A DNA stretch of 64,000 bases from NCBI GenBank assembly GCA_050253075.1, contig JBFWJS010000002.1, positions 352,001-416,000 of the forward strand, read 5' to 3'. The translations under genes were made by a program, and so were the position numbers. The stretch comes from Deferribacterales bacterium (GTDB lineage: Bacteria > Chrysiogenota > Deferribacteres > Deferribacterales > Geovibrionaceae). Positions 264 to 21,472 of this stretch are shown here, piece by piece. How positions within the stretch are numbered: the first letter of the stretch is position 1; each line of letters opens with the position of its first letter. The notes beneath the pieces were generated by a model. It did not search any database, was not told the origin of the DNA, and was given only the letters and a program-made list of their open reading frames with translations.

Positions 264-953
264 ATGAAAAGAAGAGATTTCGTAAAAGGAATGACCGGCG
301 TGACCGTTCTGTCGCTCTCGCCTATGCCCATAATCTTTAAGAACAGGGACAAGTGGAACGGCTTCAACACCCTGACAGCAGACAGACCGGAGAAAGAGCA
401 TCACTATGCTATGGTTATCGTTCAGAACAACTGCATAGGGTGCAGAGCATGCGAAAAGGCGTGCAAGGGCGCATGGGACATATCCGAAGAGAGCGGACAT
501 TTCCGCACCAGAGTGCTCTATGGCGCTCAGGCGCAGAGTAACAATACAAAGATGACATGGCTGCCTGTGCTCTGTAACCAGTGCGACAACGCTCCATGTG
601 TAAAAGTATGCCCCACAAAGGCAAGCTATAAAAGATCAGAAGACGGTGTGATACTGGTGGATGCGGCAAAGTGCATCGGGTGCAAGACATGCATCGTAGC
701 ATGCCCCTACGACGCCAGATATTATTCCGAAGAAAAGCATACGGTCGACAAGTGTACGTTCTGTCTTCCAAAAGTCCAGCAGGGGCAGCTGCCGGCATGT
801 GTCGAACGCTGTCCTATGCAGGTCAGGTTTTTCGGCGACCTGCTCGACCCGCACTCTAAGGTGTCTAAGATACTCAAAGAGGCTGTCTCCTATCATGTGC
901 TGAAACCTGAGGCAGGTACAAAATCTAATGTGTTCTATACACAGGAAATATAG
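264..953 (+). CDS. Tat-exported 4Fe-4S dicluster electron-transfer protein (NrfC/DmsB/PsrB family)
   Basis: MKRRDFVK twin-arginine motif; four Cys groups (CIGCRACEKAC, CNQCDNAPCVKVC, CIGCKTCIVAC, KCTFC..PACVERC); AAGGAG RBS. Confidence 0.92.
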   Translation: MKRRDFVKGMTGVTVLSLSPMPIIFKNRDKWNGFNTLTADRPEKEHHYAMVIVQNNCIGCRACEKACKGAWDISEESGHFRTRVLYGAQAQSNNTKMTWLPVLCNQCDNAPCVKVCPTKASYKRSEDGVILVDAAKCIGCKTCIVACPYDARYYSEEKHTVDKCTFCLPKVQQGQLPACVERCPMQVRFFGDLLDPHSKVSKILKEAVSYHVLKPEAGTKSNVFYTQEI

Positions 954-960
954 GGGGGCG

Positions 961-2136
961 ATGATGTCTGTAAACATAAAGAATAAACAAATCTCGGCTA
1001 TGCCTTTCATACTGCTCGGGCTGGTGCTCGTGGCTGTCGGCGGCATTTCGGCGATTACAGTTTTCATAAAAGGTCACGAGACTATGTACGGCGTTACACG
1101 TCAGATGCCGTGGGGGCTGCTCATCGCTACCTATGCGTATTTTGTAATAACCTCCACAGGGCTCGCATTCATAGGCGGGCTGGGGCACGCATTCGGATAT
1201 GAGAAATATGCCGTCATCAGCAGACGCATCGTCGTCCTCGCTACCGTTGTGCTCCTTGCCGGCTTCACACAGATACTCATGGAGATAGGCCAGCCGCTGA
1301 AGATGGTGTATATGATGATATCGCCAAACCCTACGGCGCCTATATTCTGGATGGGCATATTCTACAGCGTAGAGCTGGTGATACTCGCCTTTGAGCTTTA
1401 CCTCATATTCAAACCGAATCAAACGGAAAGAGACCATAAAATGGCGGCCGGTGCGGGATTCATGGCGCTTTTAGTCGGTGTTTTAGCCACCAGCAACCTC
1501 GGGTTCGTTTTCGGATCTATCTCAGCCAGAGCGTGGTTTCAGGGGATATATTTTTCGACATTTCTGGTGATATCAGGCATATCCGCAGGCGCAGGCCTCC
1601 TTATACTTGTGCACTATGTAATATATAAAGGCAGAGTGCCCGAAGACACCAAAGATGCACTTATCTCACTCGGTAAATTGATGGGCGGCGGCATCGCACT
1701 GATGCTTTTCCTGTATGTATGGAAAATGTTCTCATCCGTGTTCATAGGCTCAGGCGATGCCTACGCTTCCGCAATGGCGCTTCTCAACGGTGCATACAGC
1801 CTTAATTTCTGGGTGGGGGAGATACTCATGGCAGTTGTCATACCTCTCCTGCTGATAATGACAGCGAAAGGACGCATAGGCAGACTTGCCTTTGGCGGGT
1901 TCATATTCCTCATCGGGCTGTTTTTCACCAGATACGACTTTGTCGTGGTGGGTCAGCTTCCGCCGATGCGTGCGGGCTTTTTCGGCTCGGGCGCACTGAC
2001 AGATGTTGTGGGGCTGGATTTCTATTCGCCTTCCATGACGGAGTGGCTGATATACCTTTTAGGTTTCGGTGTATTTTTCCTCTTATATTTCTCTGCGGAA
2101 AAGTTTCTGAACCTCGAAACAATGGACAAACACTAG
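961..2136 (+). CDS. NrfD/PsrC family membrane anchor (quinol-interacting subunit)
   Basis: PWGLLIATYAYF, EIGQP, SPNPTAPIFW and RYDFVVVGQ motifs; about 10 hydrophobic helices. Start placed at ATG 961 after a G-rich RBS. Confidence 0.9.
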   Translation: MMSVNIKNKQISAMPFILLGLVLVAVGGISAITVFIKGHETMYGVTRQMPWGLLIATYAYFVITSTGLAFIGGLGHAFGYEKYAVISRRIVVLATVVLLAGFTQILMEIGQPLKMVYMMISPNPTAPIFWMGIFYSVELVILAFELYLIFKPNQTERDHKMAAGAGFMALLVGVLATSNLGFVFGSISARAWFQGIYFSTFLVISGISAGAGLLILVHYVIYKGRVPEDTKDALISLGKLMGGGIALMLFLYVWKMFSSVFIGSGDAYASAMALLNGAYSLNFWVGEILMAVVIPLLLIMTAKGRIGRLAFGGFIFLIGLFFTRYDFVVVGQLPPMRAGFFGSGALTDVVGLDFYSPSMTEWLIYLLGFGVFFLLYFSAEKFLNLETMDKH

Positions 2137-2199: not shown

Positions 2200-2586
2200 T
2201 CAGAATTTATCCAGAATATCCTTCTGAGAATCGAGGAACCCTTCAAAGTTTTCACACAGCTCCCAGTAAAGTTTGATGACACGCATCCCCTCCTCCGTGA
2301 GCTCTGCTCCGCCTCCGCCTGTTCCGCCGGTGCTCTTTATCACCAGAGGCTTTTCAGACATGGAGTTTATGCTCTCCACCAGCTTCCACGCACGGCTGTA
2401 AGACATCTTTTCAGAAGATGCCGCCTTTGATATCGAGCCGTATTCGAGTATCTTTTCCAGAAAGATGATCTTGCCCAGACCGAGGAAGTTTTTGTCGTCA
2501 CGGTCTATCCATATACGCCCGCTGAGGGTCGTGTTTCCCGAGCGTTTTTTCAGTTCTATTCGTTTTGTCATATCATTTCTTCGCAT
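2200..2586 (-). CDS. ModE-family winged-helix regulator without molybdate-binding domains
   Basis: GRIWI..FLGLGKI..GSISKAA..MSYSRAW..GGTGGGGAELT pattern of the ModE N-terminal domain; only about 125 aa. Confidence 0.85.
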   Translation of the reverse strand: MRRNDMTKRIELKKRSGNTTLSGRIWIDRDDKNFLGLGKIIFLEKILEYGSISKAASSEKMSYSRAWKLVESINSMSEKPLVIKSTGGTGGGGAELTEEGMRVIKLYWELCENFEGFLDSQKDILDKF

Positions 2587-4984: not shown

Positions 4985-5839
4985 ATGAAAAACATACTGA
5001 CTATTTTATTTATATTACTCAGCCTGAACCTGTATGCCGAGCCTCTGCGCTTCGGCATAGCTTCTATAATATCACCCGAGGAGTCCCTCGCCCTTTATCA
5101 CGACTTTAACGACTATATAGGCGACAAGCTCGGACGTGATGTAGAAACAGTGATCAAAAGAGACTACGACGTCATGAACCAGATGCTGAAAAGCTCCAGT
5201 GTGGACATAGCATCGATATGCACGGGTGCTGTGGCTTATCTGGACGATTCGGACATCCGCATAATAGCCGTGCCCGAAGTTCAGGGGAAGCACTCGTATC
5301 AGTCGTACATCATAACAAACACCGAAAGCGGCATAAAGGATGTGAACGGTCTGAAAGGGAGCACATTCGCCTTTACGGACAGGCTTTCAAACAGCGGGAC
5401 GATATACCCGACATTCCTTATCATCAAAATTTTCAGCAAAACACCCGAAGAGATATTCAAAAACGTCTATTACACCAAGAGCCACGACAAGTCTATCTAT
5501 CTGGTGAATAAGGGTGTTGTGGATGCTGCAGCAGTGGACAGCCTTATATACGACTATATAAAGAAGACCCGCCCGGCAGAGGTCTCCAACACAGAGATAA
5601 TACATAAATCTCCTGAGATAATAGCTCCGCCGATAGTCGCATCGGGCACTCTGGATGAGACGATTTTCTTGAAGATACAGGACATTCTGCTGAATATGCA
5701 CAAAACAAACGAAGGCTCAGAGATACTTAAACATCTGAACATAGACAAGTTTGTAAAGGCGGACATGGCGGATTTTAAAACTATCAGAGAGATAAGGCAG
5801 GCAGTTGAAACATTTAATTCTGAAAGTAATACCAAATAG
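4985..5839 (+). CDS. Periplasmic oxyanion-binding protein, PhnD/phosphonate-binding fold (AioX/ArxX-like role inferred)
   Basis: Signal peptide; YQSYII, FAFTDRLSNSG, SHDKSI..V..G.VDAAAV motifs; Cys in DIASICTGA. No ABC permease or ATPase adjacent; overlaps the kinase gene. Confidence 0.8.
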   Translation: MKNILTILFILLSLNLYAEPLRFGIASIISPEESLALYHDFNDYIGDKLGRDVETVIKRDYDVMNQMLKSSSVDIASICTGAVAYLDDSDIRIIAVPEVQGKHSYQSYIITNTESGIKDVNGLKGSTFAFTDRLSNSGTIYPTFLIIKIFSKTPEEIFKNVYYTKSHDKSIYLVNKGVVDAAAVDSLIYDYIKKTRPAEVSNTEIIHKSPEIIAPPIVASGTLDETIFLKIQDILLNMHKTNEGSEILKHLNIDKFVKADMADFKTIREIRQAVETFNSESNTK

Positions 5840-7187
5840 TTTCAGCAAGAGGATAGCATTCCTTATACTCATCCTCGCTTTCCTGACAATGAGCATAAAT
5901 GTCATTGTGACCATATTCTACGAGTATTCAAACACATACAACAACGCCCGAAAGATGATAGACTCTCAGTTCAGCATCATGTCGAAAGACATATCCGAAG
6001 CCATCATCACAGACGACATCTACAGGCTGTATACTATGACAGAGGAAGTATCCAGCAATATCAGCCACATAGACAACATCATCATATTCGACTCCAAGAA
6101 GGGCTACATCACAGATGCGAAGGTGCGCAAAACCCCGCCTGAAAGAAATGAGCTGTTCGTCACCATAGAAAAAGAGCTTTTCGTAGGGTCACATAAGACT
6201 GTGGGCTATATAGATTTTTACATCAGCAGACAGTCGATACTTAACAGCGTGCTGAAGAATGTCGCCGTACTCATCCTCATAAACGGGCTGGTGCTGATAT
6301 TCGGTGCGATGGCGGGTATGTTCATCAGCAACAAGCTGACATGGCCTATGCTCTCGCTATCGGAGCAGATATCAAAGCTGGATGTTCTCAATCTGCCTTA
6401 CAAGGTCTCACTGCCGATATACAGCTCGAAAGAAACGCAGCAGCTGAAGAACGTTATCGAAGACCTGTCTGAAAACCTGAAAGAATCGCTGGATAAGATA
6501 AGCCAGCAGCAGAAGGACATATCAAGGTCTGAGAGGCTGGCATACATAGGCACTATGTCTGCGGGGCTGGCGCACGAGCTGAAAAACCCGATAATGTCCA
6601 TAAACCTGATACTGGAGTCGCTGGCGGCTGATTATAAGAACGATAAACAGTTTCAGGAGGACTACCGTATAATAAAGGCACAGGCGGACAAGCTTGTCTA
6701 CAGGATAAACGAATTCCTCAATTACTCTAAACCTATCAGCCTGAACAACAAACCCGACATGCTCTTTGACATAATATCTGAGATAAAGCGTCAGAGCTAT
6801 TCGATGAAGCTGTCCGGGCTGGATATCATCACCGACGCAAAGGCAGATATCCCGATGAACATAGACAGGGATAAATTTATACAGATATTCGAAATACTGC
6901 TGAACAACTCCAAGGATGCAGGAGCATACAAGGTTTCGCTGGAGTTTTATGAAGCCGAAGAGAAACTGAATGTGACATATGAAGACAACGGACCGGGCTT
7001 TGCCGAAAGCGAAGTTGCTAAGATAATGCTCCCCTTCTACAGCACAAAGAAAGAGGGCTCAGGTCTCGGGCTTGCCATCTGCTCTGCCATAATAGATGCC
7101 ATGGGCGGTATCATCACTGCTGAAAACCTCTCCGCCGGGGGCGCATGCTTCAAAATGAACATACCGCTCGAGTCTCAGCAGCCGTAA
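5805..7187 (+). CDS. Membrane sensor histidine kinase (HAMP, NtrB-like H-box)
   Basis: Two TM helices, AGLAHELKNP H-box, DNGPG, PFYSTK, GSGLGL. Confidence 0.92.
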   Translation: MKHLILKVIPNSFSKRIAFLILILAFLTMSINVIVTIFYEYSNTYNNARKMIDSQFSIMSKDISEAIITDDIYRLYTMTEEVSSNISHIDNIIIFDSKKGYITDAKVRKTPPERNELFVTIEKELFVGSHKTVGYIDFYISRQSILNSVLKNVAVLILINGLVLIFGAMAGMFISNKLTWPMLSLSEQISKLDVLNLPYKVSLPIYSSKETQQLKNVIEDLSENLKESLDKISQQQKDISRSERLAYIGTMSAGLAHELKNPIMSINLILESLAADYKNDKQFQEDYRIIKAQADKLVYRINEFLNYSKPISLNNKPDMLFDIISEIKRQSYSMKLSGLDIITDAKADIPMNIDRDKFIQIFEILLNNSKDAGAYKVSLEFYEAEEKLNVTYEDNGPGFAESEVAKIMLPFYSTKKEGSGLGLAICSAIIDAMGGIITAENLSAGGACFKMNIPLESQQP

Positions 7188-7528
7188 TCTCTCTCTTCCA
7201 ATATCACCTTATCCAGCTTCAGCTTTACTGCTTCGCTTTTCTCGCCTGACTTTATAGTAATGATGACCTCGTCACCTTCGAAACAGCCGTTTTCAAAATA
7301 TATCGCCCCTTCGTCTGAGCGGTAGGTCTCGCCGTTTTTCGTGATATTCTCCATACGCTGGATTTTGATGCAGGGCATGTTTATATCTATATTAAAGCTC
7401 TCTATGCTGTTCAGTTTTATACGAAAGTTTTCGAACTCCCTCACCTTCTCAGGCTTTGCGTTTATGAGATCGCCCGCATTGGCTGTCAGTGCTGTCATCA
7501 GGAGCATCAGTGATAAAAAGTATTTCAT
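7175..7528 (-). CDS. Hypothetical exported protein
   Basis: MKYFLSLMLLMTALTANA signal peptide after a GAGGT RBS. Confidence 0.65.
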   Translation of the reverse strand: MKYFLSLMLLMTALTANAGDLINAKPEKVREFENFRIKLNSIESFNIDINMPCIKIQRMENITKNGETYRSDEGAIYFENGCFEGDEVIITIKSGEKSEAVKLKLDKVILEERDYGC

Positions 7529-7540
7529 AACGAACCTCAT

Positions 7541-7573
7541 AAAAAAAGGCGGGGCACACTTCTGCACCCCGCC
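7541..7573 (-). terminator. Intrinsic terminator of the reductase operon
   Basis: GGCGGGG/CCCCGCC stem followed by a 7-U tract on the minus strand, 9 nt after the stop codon. Confidence 0.85.
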
Positions 7574-7582
7574 GTGATTGAT

Positions 7583-10500
7583 CTATGCTTTTACAATAGT
7601 TACTTTTGTATCATAGAAGGATGCGCTTCCTCCTATCTTGTCTGTTGCGCACATGTTCTTCAGCACGGGGTCAACGGCATTTGCAGCATTACTGCAAAGT
7701 CCTTTTGCCCGCTTAGGCTCGCCCTTGATCACCTCTCCGTCGAGGATGATGTCGGATGAACCGTATGCCCAGTGTCCATAGTGCCATGATACTGCCACTG
7801 TTCCGGGGCGGATGGTCTCTGTGACAACCAGCTTGCCTGTCATTGGGACTTTACGTCCGTTATTCAGATCCCATACTCCGTCAGGGTTGAAAGCAGATAC
7901 TATAGTGCCCATTTCGCCGTCTTTCAGACCGAGCCTTTTAGCATCGCTTGTGTGTATCATTATGCCGTTTTCAGGCATATGGAGTTCGTTCGACCAGTAG
8001 TTGCCTATTGTTCTGGACTGACCGCCTGTTATCTCTTTGAAAGTGATAAGGTCGAGGTCTGCACCTTTGAAATCAAAAGGTCTGTCGAACATGTCGCCTG
8101 CGATGGTATAGACAGGGTATCCGAGGAAGCGTTTACCTGTCATGGAGTCCTTCGCAGTGGCTACACGAGGCACATAGAGGCTGATCTTATTCTTGAACTT
8201 ATGCGCCACCTTGTCTCCGCTGTATGCCTTCGGCAGGAATTCGAAACGTCCGCCCCTGTTCAGGGTGTAGACTATCTGCGCCCAGTTTTTGGTATGAGAC
8301 TTTGCTCTCTCCATGTCGAATGCCGCAGGTGAAAGATGCTTTCTAGCATTGAGGAAAGTTTTCATCTCTTCGGCATCGGCAGCAGGTACACCGTCCCCTT
8401 CCATGGCGATGTTTTCTATCAGCTTCATGAAGAAGTCTTCCTCACGCATGTTGTCCATGCCTTCGCCGAATCCGTCTTTGCCGAATCCGCCGAGGCCGAG
8501 TCTCTCAGCGATGGCATATGCCACAGCTTCCATAGAGAGGTGTACTGTCTGGCCGTATACGGTTGTGGTGTCTGTCATCGGCTCTACGATAGGCTGTCTT
8601 ATCTTCGATATCTTCGAAGCTACGTCAGGTGTTGTATGGGATGTTCCCCATCTTTCCCAGATGGCCTTATCAGGGAAGATGTAGTCTGCGTACATACTTG
8701 TCTCGCCCACGACGATATCTGATGATATGTGCAGAGGGAGCTTTTTAGTATCGCAGAGCATCTCGATAAACACGTTACCCGCAGGAGAAGCATAAGCCGC
8801 TGTTCCCATGTGTGTGAACAGACACTTGATACCGTAAGGATATTTGTCGTCGCCTGACGGTATGATCTCCTGATACACATTGCCTGTGAACGGATAGAAA
8901 GGACGTTTTGCAGGGTATCCGTTGAAGAATGAAGTCTTTTCATAGACAGTCTTCTCCCTTGTGATAGGATATCCGAATTTTCCGAGCTTGTTATTAACGA
9001 GCTTGCCCATGTCGTATGGGTTTCCGCCTTTACCGCCGTATTCGTGCCAGTGGCCTCCGCCTATCATCATACCGCCTGTCCAGTCTGCATTACCCATGAG
9101 AACGTTCAGGGCGATGATAGCCGTAGCGTTGTAGTATCCGTTAGTATGCTGTACAGGGCCTCTGTAGAAATCTATCGATGTCTGCTTGCCATAGTTTGTG
9201 TATTCCTTAGCTACGAGCTCTATGTCGCTCGCAGGCACACCGCATATCTCTGCCCATTCTGAGACAGTCTTCTCAAATGCAGACTCTTTATAGATAGTGA
9301 ATGCCGATTTAACCTTGATACCGTTTATAACTGTATCAACTTCAAGCTCGCCTGTCACAGCGTCGCCCTTCTCGGTTCCTGCGACAGCTTTTCCGCCGCT
9401 CATGACGACAAAGTCGCCTTCCATGCCGATGTCGGACGGTTTAAGTATATCCGCAGGGCCGTCTTTCTCTATCTTCACCAGCCATGAAGAGTTAGAGAAT
9501 GTTGTCTCGCTGAGTGCTGCGCCCGCCTTAAAGTTTGCAGCGGCGAGGTATTTTGCGTCAAATCTGCCTTTTTCGATCATCCATCTGGCCATACCCAGAG
9601 CAAATGCGGCGTCTGTGCCCGCTTTGATAGGTATCCACTTTGTAGCTTTCGCTGCTGTTTTGGAGAATCTAGGGTCAATGACGTAAACCTTCATACCGCG
9701 CTCTGTCAGACCCTGTGTGATCTTTTCACTGAGCGGCGGTGGTCCGAAGTTTGCTTCGAATCCCCCTGTTCCAAAGTAAAGAACGCATTTGGTATTCATG
9801 ATATCAGGCTTCAGGTGTGTCTTGCCCGAATACATCTCTGCGTATCCGATGTGGTGGGACTGCTCGCATATTGTTGTATGCTCAAAGAAGTTTGGCGAGC
9901 CGAAGCAGTCCTGCATAAAGCGTTTCATAAACTCTTTACGTCCGTGCTCGATACGTCCGCCCATAAAGACGAACTGAGCGTTTGCAGGGCCGGCATCAGG
10001 ATGCTCAGGGTTCGCAAACATGTCCATCATGCCTGCGTACTTCGCTTTAAAGTCTGCCATAGACATCTTTTTGCCTGCGACAGCTTTTGCATCTTCTGCC
10101 ATCTTCTTCATTGTTTTAGAGTCGCGTACTTTATATATGTCTTTGAGACCTTCTACGTTTCTGCTCTCTTCACCGGGGACTTTCGCAAAGATGTTTCCGC
10201 CGTTTACGATCTCGTCCACAGCCTGATTGAAGTCTATGCTCTCCCACTTATTCTCGCCCCTTTTACCCGCTCTTTTCAGCACTTTTGTCACTCTGTACGG
10301 GTCATAAAGGGACTGTATGCCTGCCTGACCTTTCGGGCATATCTTTGCATCTATGCGTGCGCTCCTCTCGAGGGGCTCTGTCATTTCGATGTTAGGATAA
10401 AGGTTCTGCGCTGCGTATGGGTTTCCGTCTATTTTCAGAAGCACGCCTTCCGCCACCTTGCCTTTGATAGCGCAGGCAGTGTGACACTGCAGACAGATGG

Positions 10501-10693
10501 AGTATATTACATTTTCGGGTGAAGCGAGCTCGTATTTACTCTTGCTGGAGTTATCCATCATCTTTTCGATCTTTTTACCGGCACAGCCCAGATTGGTCGT
10601 CAGGAGAGCCGAGCCGCCCAGAAGCGCAGATGTCTTCATGAAGCATCTACGGTTCAGTGTTATCTTATCTATTATATCTTTATATCTGCTCAT
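7583..10693 (-). CDS. Tat-exported DMSO-reductase-family molybdoenzyme catalytic subunit, TtrA/SrdA (tetrathionate/selenate/arsenate reductase) clade
   Basis: LNRRCFMK Tat motif; CLQCHTAC..KIDGNPY..ICPKG FS0 motif; HTTICEQ Cys-ligand region; GETSMYADYIFPD; WHYGHW; 1036 aa. Confidence 0.85.
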   Translation of the reverse strand: MSRYKDIIDKITLNRRCFMKTSALLGGSALLTTNLGCAGKKIEKMMDNSSKSKYELASPENVIYSICLQCHTACAIKGKVAEGVLLKIDGNPYAAQNLYPNIEMTEPLERSARIDAKICPKGQAGIQSLYDPYRVTKVLKRAGKRGENKWESIDFNQAVDEIVNGGNIFAKVPGEESRNVEGLKDIYKVRDSKTMKKMAEDAKAVAGKKMSMADFKAKYAGMMDMFANPEHPDAGPANAQFVFMGGRIEHGRKEFMKRFMQDCFGSPNFFEHTTICEQSHHIGYAEMYSGKTHLKPDIMNTKCVLYFGTGGFEANFGPPPLSEKITQGLTERGMKVYVIDPRFSKTAAKATKWIPIKAGTDAAFALGMARWMIEKGRFDAKYLAAANFKAGAALSETTFSNSSWLVKIEKDGPADILKPSDIGMEGDFVVMSGGKAVAGTEKGDAVTGELEVDTVINGIKVKSAFTIYKESAFEKTVSEWAEICGVPASDIELVAKEYTNYGKQTSIDFYRGPVQHTNGYYNATAIIALNVLMGNADWTGGMMIGGGHWHEYGGKGGNPYDMGKLVNNKLGKFGYPITREKTVYEKTSFFNGYPAKRPFYPFTGNVYQEIIPSGDDKYPYGIKCLFTHMGTAAYASPAGNVFIEMLCDTKKLPLHISSDIVVGETSMYADYIFPDKAIWERWGTSHTTPDVASKISKIRQPIVEPMTDTTTVYGQTVHLSMEAVAYAIAERLGLGGFGKDGFGEGMDNMREEDFFMKLIENIAMEGDGVPAADAEEMKTFLNARKHLSPAAFDMERAKSHTKNWAQIVYTLNRGGRFEFLPKAYSGDKVAHKFKNKISLYVPRVATAKDSMTGKRFLGYPVYTIAGDMFDRPFDFKGADLDLITFKEITGGQSRTIGNYWSNELHMPENGIMIHTSDAKRLGLKDGEMGTIVSAFNPDGVWDLNNGRKVPMTGKLVVTETIRPGTVAVSWHYGHWAYGSSDIILDGEVIKGEPKRAKGLCSNAANAVDPVLKNMCATDKIGGSASFYDTKVTIVKA

Positions 10694-10711
10694 TGTTTCC
10701 TCCGGTTGACC

Positions 10712-11437
10712 TTATCCGTGGCACTTTTTACAAAGCTCAACACTGTCGGTGATGTACTTTGTAGTCGGCACGGTTTTCTCATTCTGCATGTATACGTATA
10801 CATCCAGCTCTTTCGCCTTTTGAGCGATGAGGCTCTCAGGGTCGTTGATATCTCCGAAGTATGTCGCTCCGCCGAGGCATGTTGTGGCACATGTGGGGAG
10901 CATTCCCGCCGTGAGTCTGTGCAGACAGTAGTGGCACTTTCTGCAGCTGTTTACAGGAAGCGTATCTTTATCTCTCTTATACTTGTTTCCGTATTCATAG
11001 ACAGGTCCGTTCTCATAGGCTTTATCAGTGTAGAAGTCGCCCTTATCGAGAGAAACAGCACCGTAAGGACATGCTGCAACGGCATTACCCCCGCAGCCCA
11101 CACACTTGGAATAGTCTATGGCTACGATACCGTCGGCTCTTTTGATTATGGCGCCTGATGTGCAGGCCTTGATGCAGGGAGCGTCGTCGCACTGCATACA
11201 CATGCCCGGCATGAAATAACGCTGAACATTAGGGAATGTACCGTCCTCCGTCTCCTTAACCCACCTGTAATTAACGCCCTCGGGGGTTTTGTTCTCTGCT
11301 TTGCATGATACTGAGCATGCATGACACCCTGTACACTTTCTGATGTCAATCAACATGGCCCATTTCCGATTCTTTTCAGGCTTCAGAAGAGCTCTTTCGA
11401 GGTCTCTCTGCATCCTTAGGATATTGGATTCATTCAT
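10712..11437 (-). CDS. 4Fe-4S electron-transfer subunit (TtrB/SrdB-like) with C-terminal CxxCH
   Basis: WAMLIDIRKCTGCHACSVSCKAEN, CMQCDDAPC, KCHYC..PTCATTC; ends LCKKCHG; no signal peptide; GGAGG RBS. Confidence 0.9.
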   Translation of the reverse strand: MNESNILRMQRDLERALLKPEKNRKWAMLIDIRKCTGCHACSVSCKAENKTPEGVNYRWVKETEDGTFPNVQRYFMPGMCMQCDDAPCIKACTSGAIIKRADGIVAIDYSKCVGCGGNAVAACPYGAVSLDKGDFYTDKAYENGPVYEYGNKYKRDKDTLPVNSCRKCHYCLHRLTAGMLPTCATTCLGGATYFGDINDPESLIAQKAKELDVYVYMQNEKTVPTTKYITDSVELCKKCHG

Positions 11438-11474
11438 ATCGGAACCTCCATTGTATTATGGTCCGTATATACTA

Positions 11475-11491
11475 ATGCAATGGGTGTGCCA
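11475..11491 (-). promoter_or_regulatory. sigma54 (-24/-12) promoter
   Basis: Minus strand reads TGGCACACCCATTGCAT, matching TGGCAC-N5-TTGCA. Confidence 0.92.
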
Positions 11492-11504
11492 GATATTATC
11501 GGCG

Positions 11505-11517
11505 TAAGTTATTGATA
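11505..11517 (-). promoter_or_regulatory. IHF binding site
   Basis: Minus strand reads TATCAATAACTTA, matching WATCAA-N4-TTR, between the enhancer boxes and the sigma54 site. Confidence 0.75.
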
Positions 11518-11539
11518 AATGACTACGAGAGGAGCAGAC

Positions 11540-11579
11540 TGTAAAGAATGTTTACACAGAAGTGTAAGGATATCTTACT
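11540..11579. promoter_or_regulatory. Tandem palindromic enhancer (UAS) boxes for the sigma54 activator
   Basis: TGTAAAGAATGTTTACA (11540-11556) and TGTAAGGATATCTTACT (11563-11579), both TGTAA-N7-TTAC. Confidence 0.7.
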
Positions 11580-12936
11580 CTATGCCGTATCTTTTGATCT
11601 TGTCATACAGGGTCACTCTGCTTATGCCCAGCTTTTTTGCTGCTGCGGTGTGGTTTTCGGATTCGGCGAGAATCTTTTTAATAAGAGTCACTTCCAGCTC
11701 TTCCACAGAGTTGCCCAAAACAGACTCGGGATATTTAGCAATGAAATAAGAGTAGATATCGCCCGATTCAGGCTTTTCACCTGTTATTATCGATGAGATA
11801 AGCTCATATGAGATTATATTTTTATTTGCCATCACGGCGGCTTTCGCCATGATATTTTTCAGTTCACGAACATTACCTTTCCAGATATGAGACTCCAGAA
11901 TGTCCCTGCATGTATTCTCTATGGCAGTTATATTCTTCTTCAGCTCGTCTTTCTGTCTGCTGAGATAATAGAGCGACAGAGGCCAGATATCCCCCTTTCT
12001 CTCCCGAAGCGGCGGGATGTTCATCTTAAATGCGTTTATCCTGTAGTAGAGGTCTTCGCGGAAACCGCCTTCCTCCACCAGAGTCTCCAGACATTTGTTG
12101 GTGGCTGAGATTATGCGGATGTCCACCTTCTGAAATGAGTTGTCGCCAACCCTCTGTATCAGCCCGTCCTGAAGCACATGCAGCAGTTTTGCCTGAAGCT
12201 GAAGGGGCATGTCGCCTATCTCATCCAGAAAGATAGTCCCCTTGTCTGCCATCTGAAATTTACCCTGCTTGTTCGTAGCGGCACCTGTGAAGGAGCCCTT
12301 AACATGACCGAAAAGTTCGCTCTCCAGAAGTGTCTCGGGGATAGCTGCGCAGTTTATACTTACAAAAGGGCTGTTCTTCCTCGGGCTGTATCTGTGTATC
12401 AGCTTCGCCATGACATCCTTCCCTGTCCCGCTCTCTCCCGTCAGCAATACGGGCGATCTGGTCTCTGATATCACAACGATATTTTTCAGGATATCACGCA
12501 TATCCTCAGACTCGGCGATGACTATATCCTCAGCGGAACTCTTTATAGCCGTATACTTGTCGCTGTTTATGTCTATCTGCGGGGCACCTGCATATTTTTC
12601 GACTATTTCCTTCAGCTTTCCGCTGTCCACGGGCTTTGCGAGGAAGTCCACGGCACCGAGACGTATGGCATCCATCAGCACCTCGGACGTTCCGTGGGCG
12701 GTGAGGAAGGCAACGGGGATGTCTTTTTTCACAGACCTCAGCTTCTTCATGACGTCTATGCCTGTCTCGTTTTCGAGCTGATAGTCGAGGAATATGAAAT
12801 CGATATCCTCGTTATTAAGAAATGGGAGCGCATCTTCATATGAGAGCGCAGTGAATATGTCAAAGTCCTTTGATAAAGACCGTTTTATCCCGTAGCAAAT
12901 CGACTCATCGTCATCAATCAACAGTATCTTCAGCAT
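11575..12936 (-). CDS. sigma54-dependent response regulator (NtrC/AtoC family)
   Basis: Receiver domain (LLIDDD, FLDY), GESGTGKD, GSFTGA variant of GAFTGA, FLDEIGD, C-terminal Fis-type HTH. Confidence 0.96.
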   Translation of the reverse strand: MLKILLIDDDESICYGIKRSLSKDFDIFTALSYEDALPFLNNEDIDFIFLDYQLENETGIDVMKKLRSVKKDIPVAFLTAHGTSEVLMDAIRLGAVDFLAKPVDSGKLKEIVEKYAGAPQIDINSDKYTAIKSSAEDIVIAESEDMRDILKNIVVISETRSPVLLTGESGTGKDVMAKLIHRYSPRKNSPFVSINCAAIPETLLESELFGHVKGSFTGAATNKQGKFQMADKGTIFLDEIGDMPLQLQAKLLHVLQDGLIQRVGDNSFQKVDIRIISATNKCLETLVEEGGFREDLYYRINAFKMNIPPLRERKGDIWPLSLYYLSRQKDELKKNITAIENTCRDILESHIWKGNVRELKNIMAKAAVMANKNIISYELISSIITGEKPESGDIYSYFIAKYPESVLGNSVEELEVTLIKKILAESENHTAAAKKLGISRVTLYDKIKRYGIE

Positions 12937-19291: not shown

Positions 19292-21472
19292 ATGAGCGAG
19301 ATCAGAAAAAGCTATTGTGGACTATGCCACCCGAGATGCGGAACACTGCTGCATATCGAAGACGGCAAAGTTGTCAAAGTAACAGGCGACCCGGAACACC
19401 CCATAAACAGAGGCTCCATATGTGAGCGCGGACGCCTTATGCTGGACCACCTATATCACCCCGACCGCATAAACTACCCTATGAAGAGAGTCGGAGAAAA
19501 AGGCGAAGGAAAGTGGGAACGTATAAGCTGGGATCAGGCTCTCGATGAAGTCGCAGAAAAACTGCAGACATTAAAAGATAAATACGGAGCAGAGACACTC
19601 ACCTTTACCCACGGGACAAAACGCACATACCACTGGGACTGCCGCAGGTTCTTTAACCTTTTCGGCTCCCCAAACACATGCGGAGTGAATACCATATGCA
19701 TGTGCCCCAGCTATGCCACAGAGTTCGCCACATACGGCGGTATGATAATGGGCAGTGAAGTGCCTATGTCTAAGTGCATAGTGCTCTGGGGGTGCAATGC
19801 TTCACAGTCAGACCCTAACCTGCTCTATCCTATGATAATACACGCCAGAAAAGCAGGCGCGAAGCTCATCGTCATAGACCCCAGAAAGACGAGAGAAGCA
19901 GGCATGGCCGACCTGTGGCTGCAGATACGCCCCGGTACAGACCTCGCCCTCATGCTCGGCTGGATAAACCTCATCATTCAGGACGAGATGTATGATAAAG
20001 AATTTGTAAAAAACTATACCGTGGGCTTCGACGAGCTGAAAACGGAAGTTCAGAAATACACACCTAAATATGTCTCTGAGATAACAGGCGTTCCCGTTGA
20101 GGCCATTGTCGAATCCGCCACAATGTATGCCACCACAAAGCCAGGCGTCATTCCGTTCGGCTTCGGCATTGATAAGCAGGGGATAAACGCTACACAGTGC
20201 GCCAGAGCAAAAGCCATCATAAGAGCTATCACGGGCAACCTCGAAGTTCCCGGCGGTGAAGTGTTCAGTATGGCAGAAAACATAGGCAACATCCGTGACT
20301 GGACATACCTGGAGCTGAACGAAGCCATGCCCGAAGAGCAAAAAAGCAAACAGCTCGGTGCTGACAAGTATCCATTCTTCGGATATCCCGGATGGGAAAT
20401 GAACTCCGAGGCAAACAGTAAGCTCCCCGAAGGATATATGATGCCGCCTGAAAGCTGGCACAGCAACCTCGCCCACGCAAGGGAAGTCATGGATGCCATA
20501 GTCACAAAGAAACCGTATCCCGTGACAGCCGCCATAACACTTGCGAACAACCCGATGGTGGCACTGCCGAACACTCAAAAGGTATTCGAGGCTCTTAAAG
20601 CTCTTGAGCTTTATGTTGTGGTCGAATATTACATGACACCGTCTGCCGCACTGGCAGACTACATATTCCCTGCCGCCTCCACTGTGGAGACATCCGAGCT
20701 GTGGCTGACAAACAGGTTCTGCATGGCTTGTCCGCAGGGGATAGAGCCCCTTTACGAGCGCAGAAACAGCTATGACTTCTACAGAGGTCTCGGCATGCGC
20801 CTCGGACAGGCGGACCAGTGGCCCTGGGAAACAATAGAGGAAGTCTACGATCATTGTCTTGAGCCCGTGGGACTGACATTCAAACAACTGTCAGACCAAC
20901 ACGGTATCTTTGGCAGGATGGAATATAAGAGATACGAAAAATACGGCTTCGGCACACCATCCGGTAAGGTAGAGCTGAAATCGTCTATATTTGAAAAACT
21001 GGGCAACGACCCGCTGCCTAGATATAAAGAACCGCTCTGGAGCCCGAACGGCGACAAAGCCCTCACAGATGAATACCCGCTCATCCTTATAACAGGGAGC
21101 AGATTCATGCCTATGTACCAGTCCGAGCAGAGACAGATAGAAAAGGCACGTAAGAAGATGCCCGATCCTCTGGTCTCCATGCACCCCGATACAGCGAAAA
21201 AGCTGAAACTGGCAGAAGGCGACTGGGCAAAAATATCAACACTGCAGGGCTCTATACGCCAGCGTGTGAGGATAACAGATGCAATGGATCCGGGCATGGT
21301 GGACGTACAGCATTCATGGTGGTTCCCCGAGAGGAGTCCGAAGCTGCCAGAGCTATTCGGCGTGTTTGAGTCAAATGCAAACATGCTGTGCCCGGACGAC
21401 CATGAGCTATGCAGTCCGGAGATAGGGAGCTGGCCTCACTCGGCTCTGATGTGTAAGGTTGAAAAAGAGTAA
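19292..21472 (+). CDS. Stand-alone cytoplasmic Mo/W-bisPGD enzyme, acetylene hydratase-like
   Basis: CGLCHPRC..C FS0 motif, no Tat signal, 726 aa. FFNLFGSPN..ICM, EAMPEEQKSKQLGADKYPF and TPSGKVELKSSIFEKLGNDPLP resemble Pelobacter acetylene hydratase (from recall). Confidence 0.82.
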   Translation: MSEIRKSYCGLCHPRCGTLLHIEDGKVVKVTGDPEHPINRGSICERGRLMLDHLYHPDRINYPMKRVGEKGEGKWERISWDQALDEVAEKLQTLKDKYGAETLTFTHGTKRTYHWDCRRFFNLFGSPNTCGVNTICMCPSYATEFATYGGMIMGSEVPMSKCIVLWGCNASQSDPNLLYPMIIHARKAGAKLIVIDPRKTREAGMADLWLQIRPGTDLALMLGWINLIIQDEMYDKEFVKNYTVGFDELKTEVQKYTPKYVSEITGVPVEAIVESATMYATTKPGVIPFGFGIDKQGINATQCARAKAIIRAITGNLEVPGGEVFSMAENIGNIRDWTYLELNEAMPEEQKSKQLGADKYPFFGYPGWEMNSEANSKLPEGYMMPPESWHSNLAHAREVMDAIVTKKPYPVTAAITLANNPMVALPNTQKVFEALKALELYVVVEYYMTPSAALADYIFPAASTVETSELWLTNRFCMACPQGIEPLYERRNSYDFYRGLGMRLGQADQWPWETIEEVYDHCLEPVGLTFKQLSDQHGIFGRMEYKRYEKYGFGTPSGKVELKSSIFEKLGNDPLPRYKEPLWSPNGDKALTDEYPLILITGSRFMPMYQSEQRQIEKARKKMPDPLVSMHPDTAKKLKLAEGDWAKISTLQGSIRQRVRITDAMDPGMVDVQHSWWFPERSPKLPELFGVFESNANMLCPDDHELCSPEIGSWPHSALMCKVEKE

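Follow-up and report, generated by a model that had tools for sequence, protein, structure and literature searches.

A Ttr-like molybdoenzyme under an ArrX-type sensor in Deferribacterales: a probable alternative respiratory arsenate reductase

Introduction

Positions 4985–12936 of a 64,000-nucleotide stretch of a Deferribacterales genome (contig JBFWJS010000002.1, positions 352,001–416,000; hereafter the window) encode a putative periplasmic sensor protein (X), a histidine kinase (S) and a regulator (R), which are arranged around the two subunits of a Ttr-like molybdoenzyme (B and A) and a small third gene. From comparative sequence evidence we conclude, with a probability of roughly 0.7, that this locus provides an arsenate-inducible respiratory arsenate reductase of a non-Arr type, which has no gene for a membrane anchor and would take up electrons through a haem-bearing tail. 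An alternative, Ttr-like arsenate reductase is probable because X is of the ArrX type, the active site carries a Gly-Arg motif, ArrA is missing from the genome, and sensor, promoter and enhancer are shared with arrAB loci of relatives, in which the two cassettes replace each other in the same slot. Arsenic is likely to be the substrate, and if it is, reduction is very likely the direction of catalysis. Arsenic is mobilised by arsenate respiration, which is usually surveyed via arrA. For a large, so far uncharacterised enzyme subclade, the exchange with arrAB under a near-identical sensor is comparative evidence of the substrate; the present reading also proposes a role for two genes whose function two genome papers had left open. 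The locus comprises the following features:

4985–5839, plus strand: X, putative periplasmic arsenic-oxyanion sensor, ArrX-like (PF12974)
5805–7187, plus strand: S, membrane sensor histidine kinase (HisKA and HATPase_c)
7175–7528, minus strand: third gene, 117-amino-acid (aa) exported-type protein (conserved open reading frame, no Pfam or NCBIfam family)
7548–7573, minus strand: terminator-like hairpin in the gap between A and the third gene
7583–10693, minus strand: A, catalytic subunit with molybdenum (Mo) or tungsten bound by bis-pyranopterin guanine dinucleotide (NCBIfam TtrA model, alignment with 6cz7, trees)
10712–11437, minus strand: B, iron-sulfur (Fe-S) subunit of DmsB/TtrB type (profile matches)
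10718–10732, minus strand: CKKCH (C236–H240) at the C-terminus of B, candidate haem c attachment site
11476–11491, minus strand: sigma54 (−24/−12) promoter consensus
11540–11579: tandem palindromes TGTAA-N7-TTACA, candidate R-binding sites
11575–12936, minus strand: R, sigma54 activator of NtrC/AtoC type

Results and discussion

An initial annotation of the window, made from the letters alone, had recognised most of this layout, i.e. a PhnD-fold protein with a cysteine (Cys79 in DIASICTGA) whose gene overlaps the kinase gene (by 35 nt), an NtrC-type regulator on the far side, and a B-A pair bounded by a sigma54 promoter and a terminator. The absences that it listed are borne out by the complete gene set of the genome (3.04 Mb, 99.9% complete): none of the 14 PF00528 permease matches of ABC transporters lies in the window, the three NrfD genes, encoding potential anchors, are all located elsewhere (the nearest at window 928–2136), and so are all five matches to the TorD chaperone family (PF02613). 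Its two-gene operon stands as regards the B-A order, but not the number of genes, as a conserved 117-aa reading frame lies directly behind the terminator. The enhancer pair, the CxxCH end of B and a lipoprotein-like cysteine behind the twin-arginine translocation (Tat) signal of A had been overlooked.

An ArrX-like sensor

The best match of X in the PDB is ArrX from Chrysiogenes arsenatis (E 3e-45), followed by AioX (1e-26) and transport proteins; PhnD matches with 2e-14. Alignments recover all seven residues of the arsenic pocket in X, namely Y61, C79, Y105, S135, S137, H167 and D185 (Y88, C106, Y131, S161, S163, H192 and D210 in AioX numbering; PMC5908839). The loop preceding the pocket residues resembles the SxISPxE of ArrX, and the Val-Phe-Leu of AioX is not present. 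Like the members of the AioX/ArxX/ArrX subfamily, X is encoded together with a kinase and a regulator; judged by its sequence, it is an ArrX-like member of this subfamily. A role as substrate-binding protein of an ABC transporter was ruled out by the lack of permease genes in the window. Among Deferribacterales, all 26 X proteins that are paired with a Mo enzyme share the pocket pattern YCYS[ST]HD, regardless of the enzyme. According to PMC5908839, ArrX binds arsenate and weakly phosphate, whereas no binding was seen for selenate, tetrathionate, thiosulfate and antimonite. S possesses two predicted transmembrane helices (residues ~13–40 and ~145–176, from hydropathy) and His257, while R combines the receiver residue Asp51 with a GSFTGA loop and an HTH_8 domain. 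The proposal in the initial annotation that a three-component sensor controls an oxyanion reductase of the Ttr clade is thus supported by the sequences of X, S, the sigma54-type R and A. However, leaving the substrate unspecified was too cautious, since arsenic is indicated by the type of sensor, by the active-site motif and by the exchange of cassettes with arrAB.

Several other X genes deserve mention. Orphan paralogues with an altered pocket (YCYTSND) are present at L190:5743-6585 and L191:7852-8694, beside ArsC and ArsP-like genes and with no kinase or Mo enzyme nearby. In relative G024 (L192:7928-8515), X is shortened and followed by insertion-element-like genes, and no enzyme to go with it was found in G024. 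An exported protein of the alkaline phosphatase family (PF01663), which may tune the interference of phosphate with the sensor, is encoded between X and S or adjoining the cassette at L029:4774-5550, L030, L031, L179, L180 and L188.

Subunit A represents a sister subclade of arsenate-linked enzymes

Subunit A (1036 aa) displays a Tat motif at residue 14, Leu-Gly-Cys at 35–37, the CxxCxxxC motif of cluster FS0 at 67, Gly246-Arg247, His272 and Cys276, the latter being the predicted Mo ligand. Its best NCBIfam match is the TtrA model, albeit with 441 bits at a cut-off of 1750, and it scores 147 bits on the ArrA model NF041714. In an alignment with the solved ArrA structure 6cz7, G246-R247, H272, T273 and C276 coincide with G124-R125, H149, S150 and C153, respectively. 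We take the aligned His and Cys to be those labelled H189 and C193 in ArrA, and R125 of the 6cz7 chain would correspond to R165 through an offset of 40. R165 is the arsenate-binding arginine, and the Gly-Arg motif is described as present in all arsenic enzymes and missing from true Ttr (PMC12949373). Indeed, an annotated TtrA (L174; 29% identity to A) lacks Gly-Arg. Assignment of A to ArrA/ArxA was ruled out by the score on NF041714, by its length and gene order (ArrA has ~850 aa and the order A-B) and by its 25% identity with ArrA-like sequences from relatives. Likewise, a true TtrBCA system was ruled out by the missing anchor, the lack of a Tat signal on B, the presence of Gly-Arg and the low TtrA score.

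In trees of 95 and 32 sequences, the Ttr-like proteins with Gly-Arg fall into two sister subclades, supported by values of 99 and 100 in the Shimodaira-Hasegawa-like approximate likelihood ratio test (SH-aLRT), with 100 for the joint clade; SH-aLRT is a quick method, and FastTree runs gave subclade I little support. Subclade I is marked by the signatures xGRxKxGR and GHTTVCQGSLY, subclade II, which includes A, by GRIEHGRK and EHTxxCEQSHH; of the 178 proteins in subclade II, 164 carry GR[IVM]EHGR. Subclade I contains loci of the Melioribacter family with the layout ars-X-S-R-B-C-A and five proteins of Table S2 in PMC11462812, which are given there as >70% similar to the arsenate-linked enzymes of strains PSR-1 or OR-1. 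To these PSR-1/OR-1 proxies A is 46% identical. No characterised member of subclade II was found, SrdA and the Pyrobaculum enzyme being outside the trees. The phylogeny proposed in the initial annotation has thus come out with A in the Ttr lineage, apart from TtrA and ArrA, for the sequences that the trees cover. By its sequence, A is a member of subclade II within the Ttr-like Gly-Arg group and neither a TtrBCA nor an ArrA enzyme. Its closest named homologues stem from Denitrovibrio acetiphilus (P0368, 82%) and Deferribacter species (69%), cultured organisms that would allow direct testing. In all nine orthologues the Tat signal ends with Leu/Ile-Gly-Cys, which suggests a lipid tether. A structure of A predicted from a 10-sequence alignment had a mean predicted local distance difference test score (pLDDT) of 43.5 and was not used.

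Further, more distant Ttr-like enzymes with Gly-Arg were noticed. Relative G016 encodes a third type of 1142 aa (L035:7808-11236), occupying the slot that holds subclade I in G023 and G030. A distant operon (L173:7019-12414) resides in an ars island on a plasmid of Citrobacter arsenatis, and at least nine enterobacterial plasmids show the same 34% match as L173.

The enzyme cassette is exchanged for arrAB in relatives

No ArrA is encoded in the genome that contains the window. Among 40 relatives, an ArrA-like enzyme is present in 11 (1102–1182 bits, below the cut-off of 1600), subclade II in eight and subclade I in five, and only G002 combines an ArrA-like enzyme with subclade I/II. An X homologue exists in all 23 relatives with either enzyme, 26 relatives having X in total; as relatives are kin and not independent, no p-value is given for this co-occurrence. 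All 11 arrAB loci consist of X-S-R and arrA-arrB followed by a small gene, which belongs to the TorD family in the one case scanned. None of the 11 operons contains an anchor gene; the anchorless state is the rule for arsenate reductases of Deferribacterales.

In G022, the cassette of B, A and third gene occupies the same chromosomal slot, with the same flanking genes, as arrAB with its TorD-like gene in G029 and G035, and the sensors are near-identical (G022 versus G029: X 89%, S 91% and R 96% identity). A like exchange distinguishes G025, G032 and G038 from G018 (X 65–79% identical), so that slot exchange is seen in two genera. Moreover, ars genes are present at five of the eight orthologous loci within the 19.5 kb fetched. 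The presence of X-S-R at all 11 ArrA-like loci of relatives (L177–L187) is contrary to a statement in PMC5908839 that arrXSR is absent from Deferribacteres. The four ArrA N-termini examined in relatives carry a Tat signal ending with Gly-Cys.

The two cassettes also share their promoter architecture. The sigma54 site TGGCAC-N5-TTGCA at 11476–11491 begins 54 nt ahead of the start of B and belongs to a pattern (TGGCAY-N5-TTGCW) with 18 exact sites in the 3.04 Mb genome. The palindrome at 11540–11556 matches TGTAA-N7-TTACA exactly, as do nine sequences in the genome overall, and the one at 11563–11579 deviates by one mismatch. When up to two mismatches are allowed and G018, where the arrA start is mis-set, is counted as a miss, the sigma54 site is found in 8/9 subclade II promoters and 10/11 arrA promoters of relatives, and the TGTAA-N7-TTACA enhancer in 8/9 and 9/11, respectively.

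A CxxCH tail on subunit B coincides with lack of an anchor

Subunit B, which has no Tat signal of its own, ends with CKKCHG, placing CKKCH one residue ahead of the stop. In its cysteine group III, the third Cys is missing while C92, C112 and C115 are kept. To place these features, 177 loci were pooled (80 from genomes, 80 from metagenomes and the remainder from the window and relatives), of which 153 B-A pairs were scored. Of the 79 pairs whose B and A genes are separated by an NrfD gene, none has a CxxCH tail. The 74 pairs without NrfD comprise 34 with a tail, 23 without a tail but with a multihaem cytochrome c gene just upstream, and 17 left unassigned, some of which are truncated or have overlapping frames. 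Subclade II divides cleanly into 27 anchored and 17 tailed pairs. Tail changes number six on the A tree and three on the B tree, for which reason it appears as if the tailed B had joined different A subunits as a module.

Tail and cluster ligands are also related. All four ligands of one cluster, presumably the quinol-side FS4 by analogy with DmsB, are kept in 77/79 anchored B proteins and in 23/23 of the cytochrome type. By comparison, 24 of the 34 tailed B proteins retain no ligand of this cluster, two retain one and eight three. The latter eight are those of Deferribacterales, the B of the window among them; with three of four ligands kept, their cluster may persist in a [3Fe-4S] form or be in the process of being lost. 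The genome encodes cytochrome c assembly genes and many multihaem cytochromes, and on balance we favour attachment of haem to the tail. If so, it would constitute a third electron route for such enzymes, besides the NrfD anchor or a separate cytochrome. Inside B of the window there is another CxxCH motif (CRKCH), which arises from an extra Cys at residue 165 and overlaps with a cluster ligand. Two B proteins of the tail clade (L048 and L245) carry decayed motifs (CKSQHP and AAYHP, respectively).

The third gene encodes a conserved three-cysteine protein

The third gene lies 3' of A, directly behind the terminator, in all eight relatives with an orthologous enzyme. A hairpin, a T-rich tract, a site resembling a ribosome-binding site and an ATG follow A in 9/9 orthologous loci, and the hairpin suggests that the third protein is probably made at a low level. 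The protein has a signal-peptide-like N-terminus and, in the alignment, the invariant cysteines C53, C82 and, at its C-terminus, C117. A model (pLDDT 86.8) predicts an all-beta, Ig-like sandwich with the terminal Cys free on a flexible tail, and fold comparison returned only generic Ig-like matches (best Z 8.3, cohesin). The copy in the window has no Pfam match at E 10, no NCBIfam family and no usable Atlas match, and a profile search among 1.84 billion representative sequences yielded 13 matches, of which 12 are full-length and one is a repeat protein. The gene is present in 9 of 61 genomes, in one copy each, which are exactly the known carriers of subclade II, 20 added genomes not having been searched for A. 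Subclade II loci outside Deferribacterales have no third gene.

Proposed mechanism and alternative explanations

In the mechanism that we propose, X would bind periplasmic arsenate, as its homology to ArrX suggests, and S would phosphorylate R, which may then act from the TGTAA-N7-TTACA pair to activate the sigma54 promoter. B would be carried out together with A by the Tat signal of A, and the complex is probably lipid-tethered at Cys37, where the motif resides. Electrons could pass from periplasmic cytochromes to the tail haem and on through the Fe-S chain to Mo, where A would reduce As(V) to As(III). The three-cysteine protein, produced by terminator read-through and probably at a low level, might, as a guess, be an accessory factor whose thiols act on arsenite or on the tail of B.

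More tentatively, subclade II as a whole might be a widespread respiratory reductase of arsenic species, possibly including thioarsenate, in which a Tat-exported B uses the tail haem in place of quinol-side cluster and anchor. The Deferribacterales form would then be a lipid-tethered intermediate with three of four ligands and a recruited Ig-like protein, and could account for the unnamed arsenate reductase of D. desulfuricans, invisible to arrA surveys.

Several observations weigh against the proposed function. Subclade I, whose active-site signature differs, contains all of the PSR-1/OR-1 proxies as well as the loci of the Melioribacter family in which the published layout occurs. Specificity is not fixed by the pocket residues alone (PMC5908839). 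No ars gene adjoins the locus in the genome of the window, and in G016 X-S-R is located by the third, distant Ttr-like enzyme. In G002, arrAB and a subclade II enzyme are both kept and served by separate X-S-R modules; the promoter of the latter enzyme lacks the common enhancer, which would fit a response to different signals. Furthermore, a rhodanese gene lies 3' of the third gene in 3/8 orthologous loci, the lipobox of A is non-canonical at −3 and missing in 3 of the 15 closest full-length homologues, and the test of tail versus anchor has only five independent pairs (5/5 agree, p 0.0625, with the 17 unassigned rows excluded).

Some of these points would also suit an enzyme that is induced by arsenic but reduces a related species such as thioarsenate or antimonate, while the third protein and rhodanese handle sulfur or the trivalent product. 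The own signature of subclade II (EHTxxCEQSHH versus GHTTVCQGSLY), its retention beside arrAB in G002, the rhodanese genes and the free C-terminal Cys of the third protein are consistent with this explanation. However, it is unlikely in view of the one-for-one exchange with arrAB by an 89% identical sensor and the failure of ArrX to bind antimonite and thiosulfate (PMC5908839). In addition, no sequence kinship of the third protein to SoxY was detected (hhalign probability 0.1% against five SoxY sequences, no GGCGG, and no SoxY among the listed fold matches).

It is improbable that the enzyme works in reverse, oxidising arsenite anaerobically in the manner of Arx and passing the electrons to cytochromes. 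Loss of the quinol site with gain of haem would suit an acceptor of higher potential, and cytochromes instead of menaquinol would be the partners of the haem tail; AioR and ArxR are sigma54 activators like R (PMC5908839), and Gly-Arg also occurs in Arx (PMC12949373). Yet X is far nearer to ArrX than to AioX and lacks its Val-Phe-Leu loop, and the cassette replaces arrAB, whose regulators are of the sigma54 type here as well. Finally, the enzyme might have co-opted the sensor and reduce selenate, like SrdA, or tetrathionate. This explanation, for which membership of SrdA in the same lineage (PMC7331816) and the TtrA model as best match of A could be cited, has little probability given the Gly-Arg motif, the low TtrA score and distance to annotated TtrA, the missing TtrC and Tat signal of B, the lack of selenate and tetrathionate binding by ArrX (PMC5908839) and the 88 bits of X on the putative selenate-binding model at a cut-off of 250.

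Relation to known systems

The nearest functional counterpart of the proposed arsenate reductase system is ArrXSR with ArrAB of Chrysiogenes arsenatis, in which a sensor protein with a Cys pocket, a kinase and a regulator likewise accompany an exported two-subunit Mo enzyme (PMC5908839) and all seven pocket residues are in common with X. The two differ in that ArrR is CitB-like without an AAA+ domain (PMC5908839) whereas R is of the sigma54 type, and in the enzyme itself, ArrAB there and Ttr-like here. Judged from sequence and analogy, the locus would operate as ArrXSR-ArrAB does, with another set of catalytic genes.

As to the enzyme, the type of Anaeromyxobacter PSR-1 and Geobacter OR-1 is closest, sharing the joint clade, Gly-Arg, HTxxC and the B-A order, and proxies such as L104 are anchorless, too. 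However, this group relies on an upstream gene for a small c7 cytochrome, has retained all four Fe-S clusters and lacks CxxCH tail and third gene, and the residues behind Gly-Arg and the Mo ligand differ. The PSR-1 operon reportedly has the order cytochrome-B-A. Orthology to a characterised system of the same architecture, which the initial annotation named as a refuting outcome, applies by half: A belongs to the sister subclade of this type, while B and the third gene differ.

In Melioribacter roseus, ArrTSR and ars genes lie upstream of the ttr locus, i.e. an X-S-R module precedes a Ttr-like enzyme, and the transcript was higher with arsenate, although not statistically significantly (PMC5492636). 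That ttr has an anchor subunit, and family loci with its layout (L205 and L207) belong to subclade I; no named M. roseus protein was among the 120 matches listed for homologues of L084. Salmonella-type TtrBCA shares the lineage and the position of B ahead of A, but differs by its TtrC, a Tat signal on B, the lack of Gly-Arg and another sensor, and SrdBCA has an anchor, unlike the present locus. Anchorless 'Ttr' proteins of Deferribacter desulfuricans and D. autotrophicus were annotated as tetrathionate reductase of uncertain function (PMC2885270, PMC6896113). P0364 (D. desulfuricans) and P0014, subclade II members with 69% identity, were matched to these papers by species, not by locus tag. 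The 'Ttr' passages of both papers make no link to arsenic, a sensor, the tail or the third gene; D. desulfuricans is arsenate-reducing according to a reference title, the only place where PMC2885270 uses 'arsenate'. In the light of the published M. roseus and Deferribacter loci, to call the system undescribed, as the initial annotation did, was overstated.

What appears to be new at the sequence level is a sister subclade, so far uncharacterised, with its own active-site signature, the haem-motif tail of B with a partly kept cluster, and the conserved three-cysteine protein, putatively exported and accessory. A literature search, with subscription papers mostly outside its coverage, found no arsenic role for the Deferribacterales enzyme, no report on the third gene or on a CxxCH tail of B, and no link to thioarsenate. 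Subclade II or the tail may already be dealt with in Fig. 2 of PMC12949373, where two Ttr-like clades are left unassigned, or in Table S9 of PMC13490349.

Neighbouring genes

At window 264–2136 on the plus strand (G000:C2:351466-352245), 2.9 kb from X, a Tat-signal protein with one CxxCH, which we take to be split-Soret-like, is followed by an NrfC-type Fe-S gene and NrfD. Lacking a catalytic subunit, this appears as an orphan quinol-to-periplasm module. A function as dedicated anchor of B-A was ruled out, as the module is not found beside the eight orthologous loci; it could nevertheless supply electrons to B-A. A ModE-like regulator is encoded at 2200–2586 (minus strand), and a second molybdopterin enzyme of 726 aa, unrelated to A, at 19292–21472 (plus strand).

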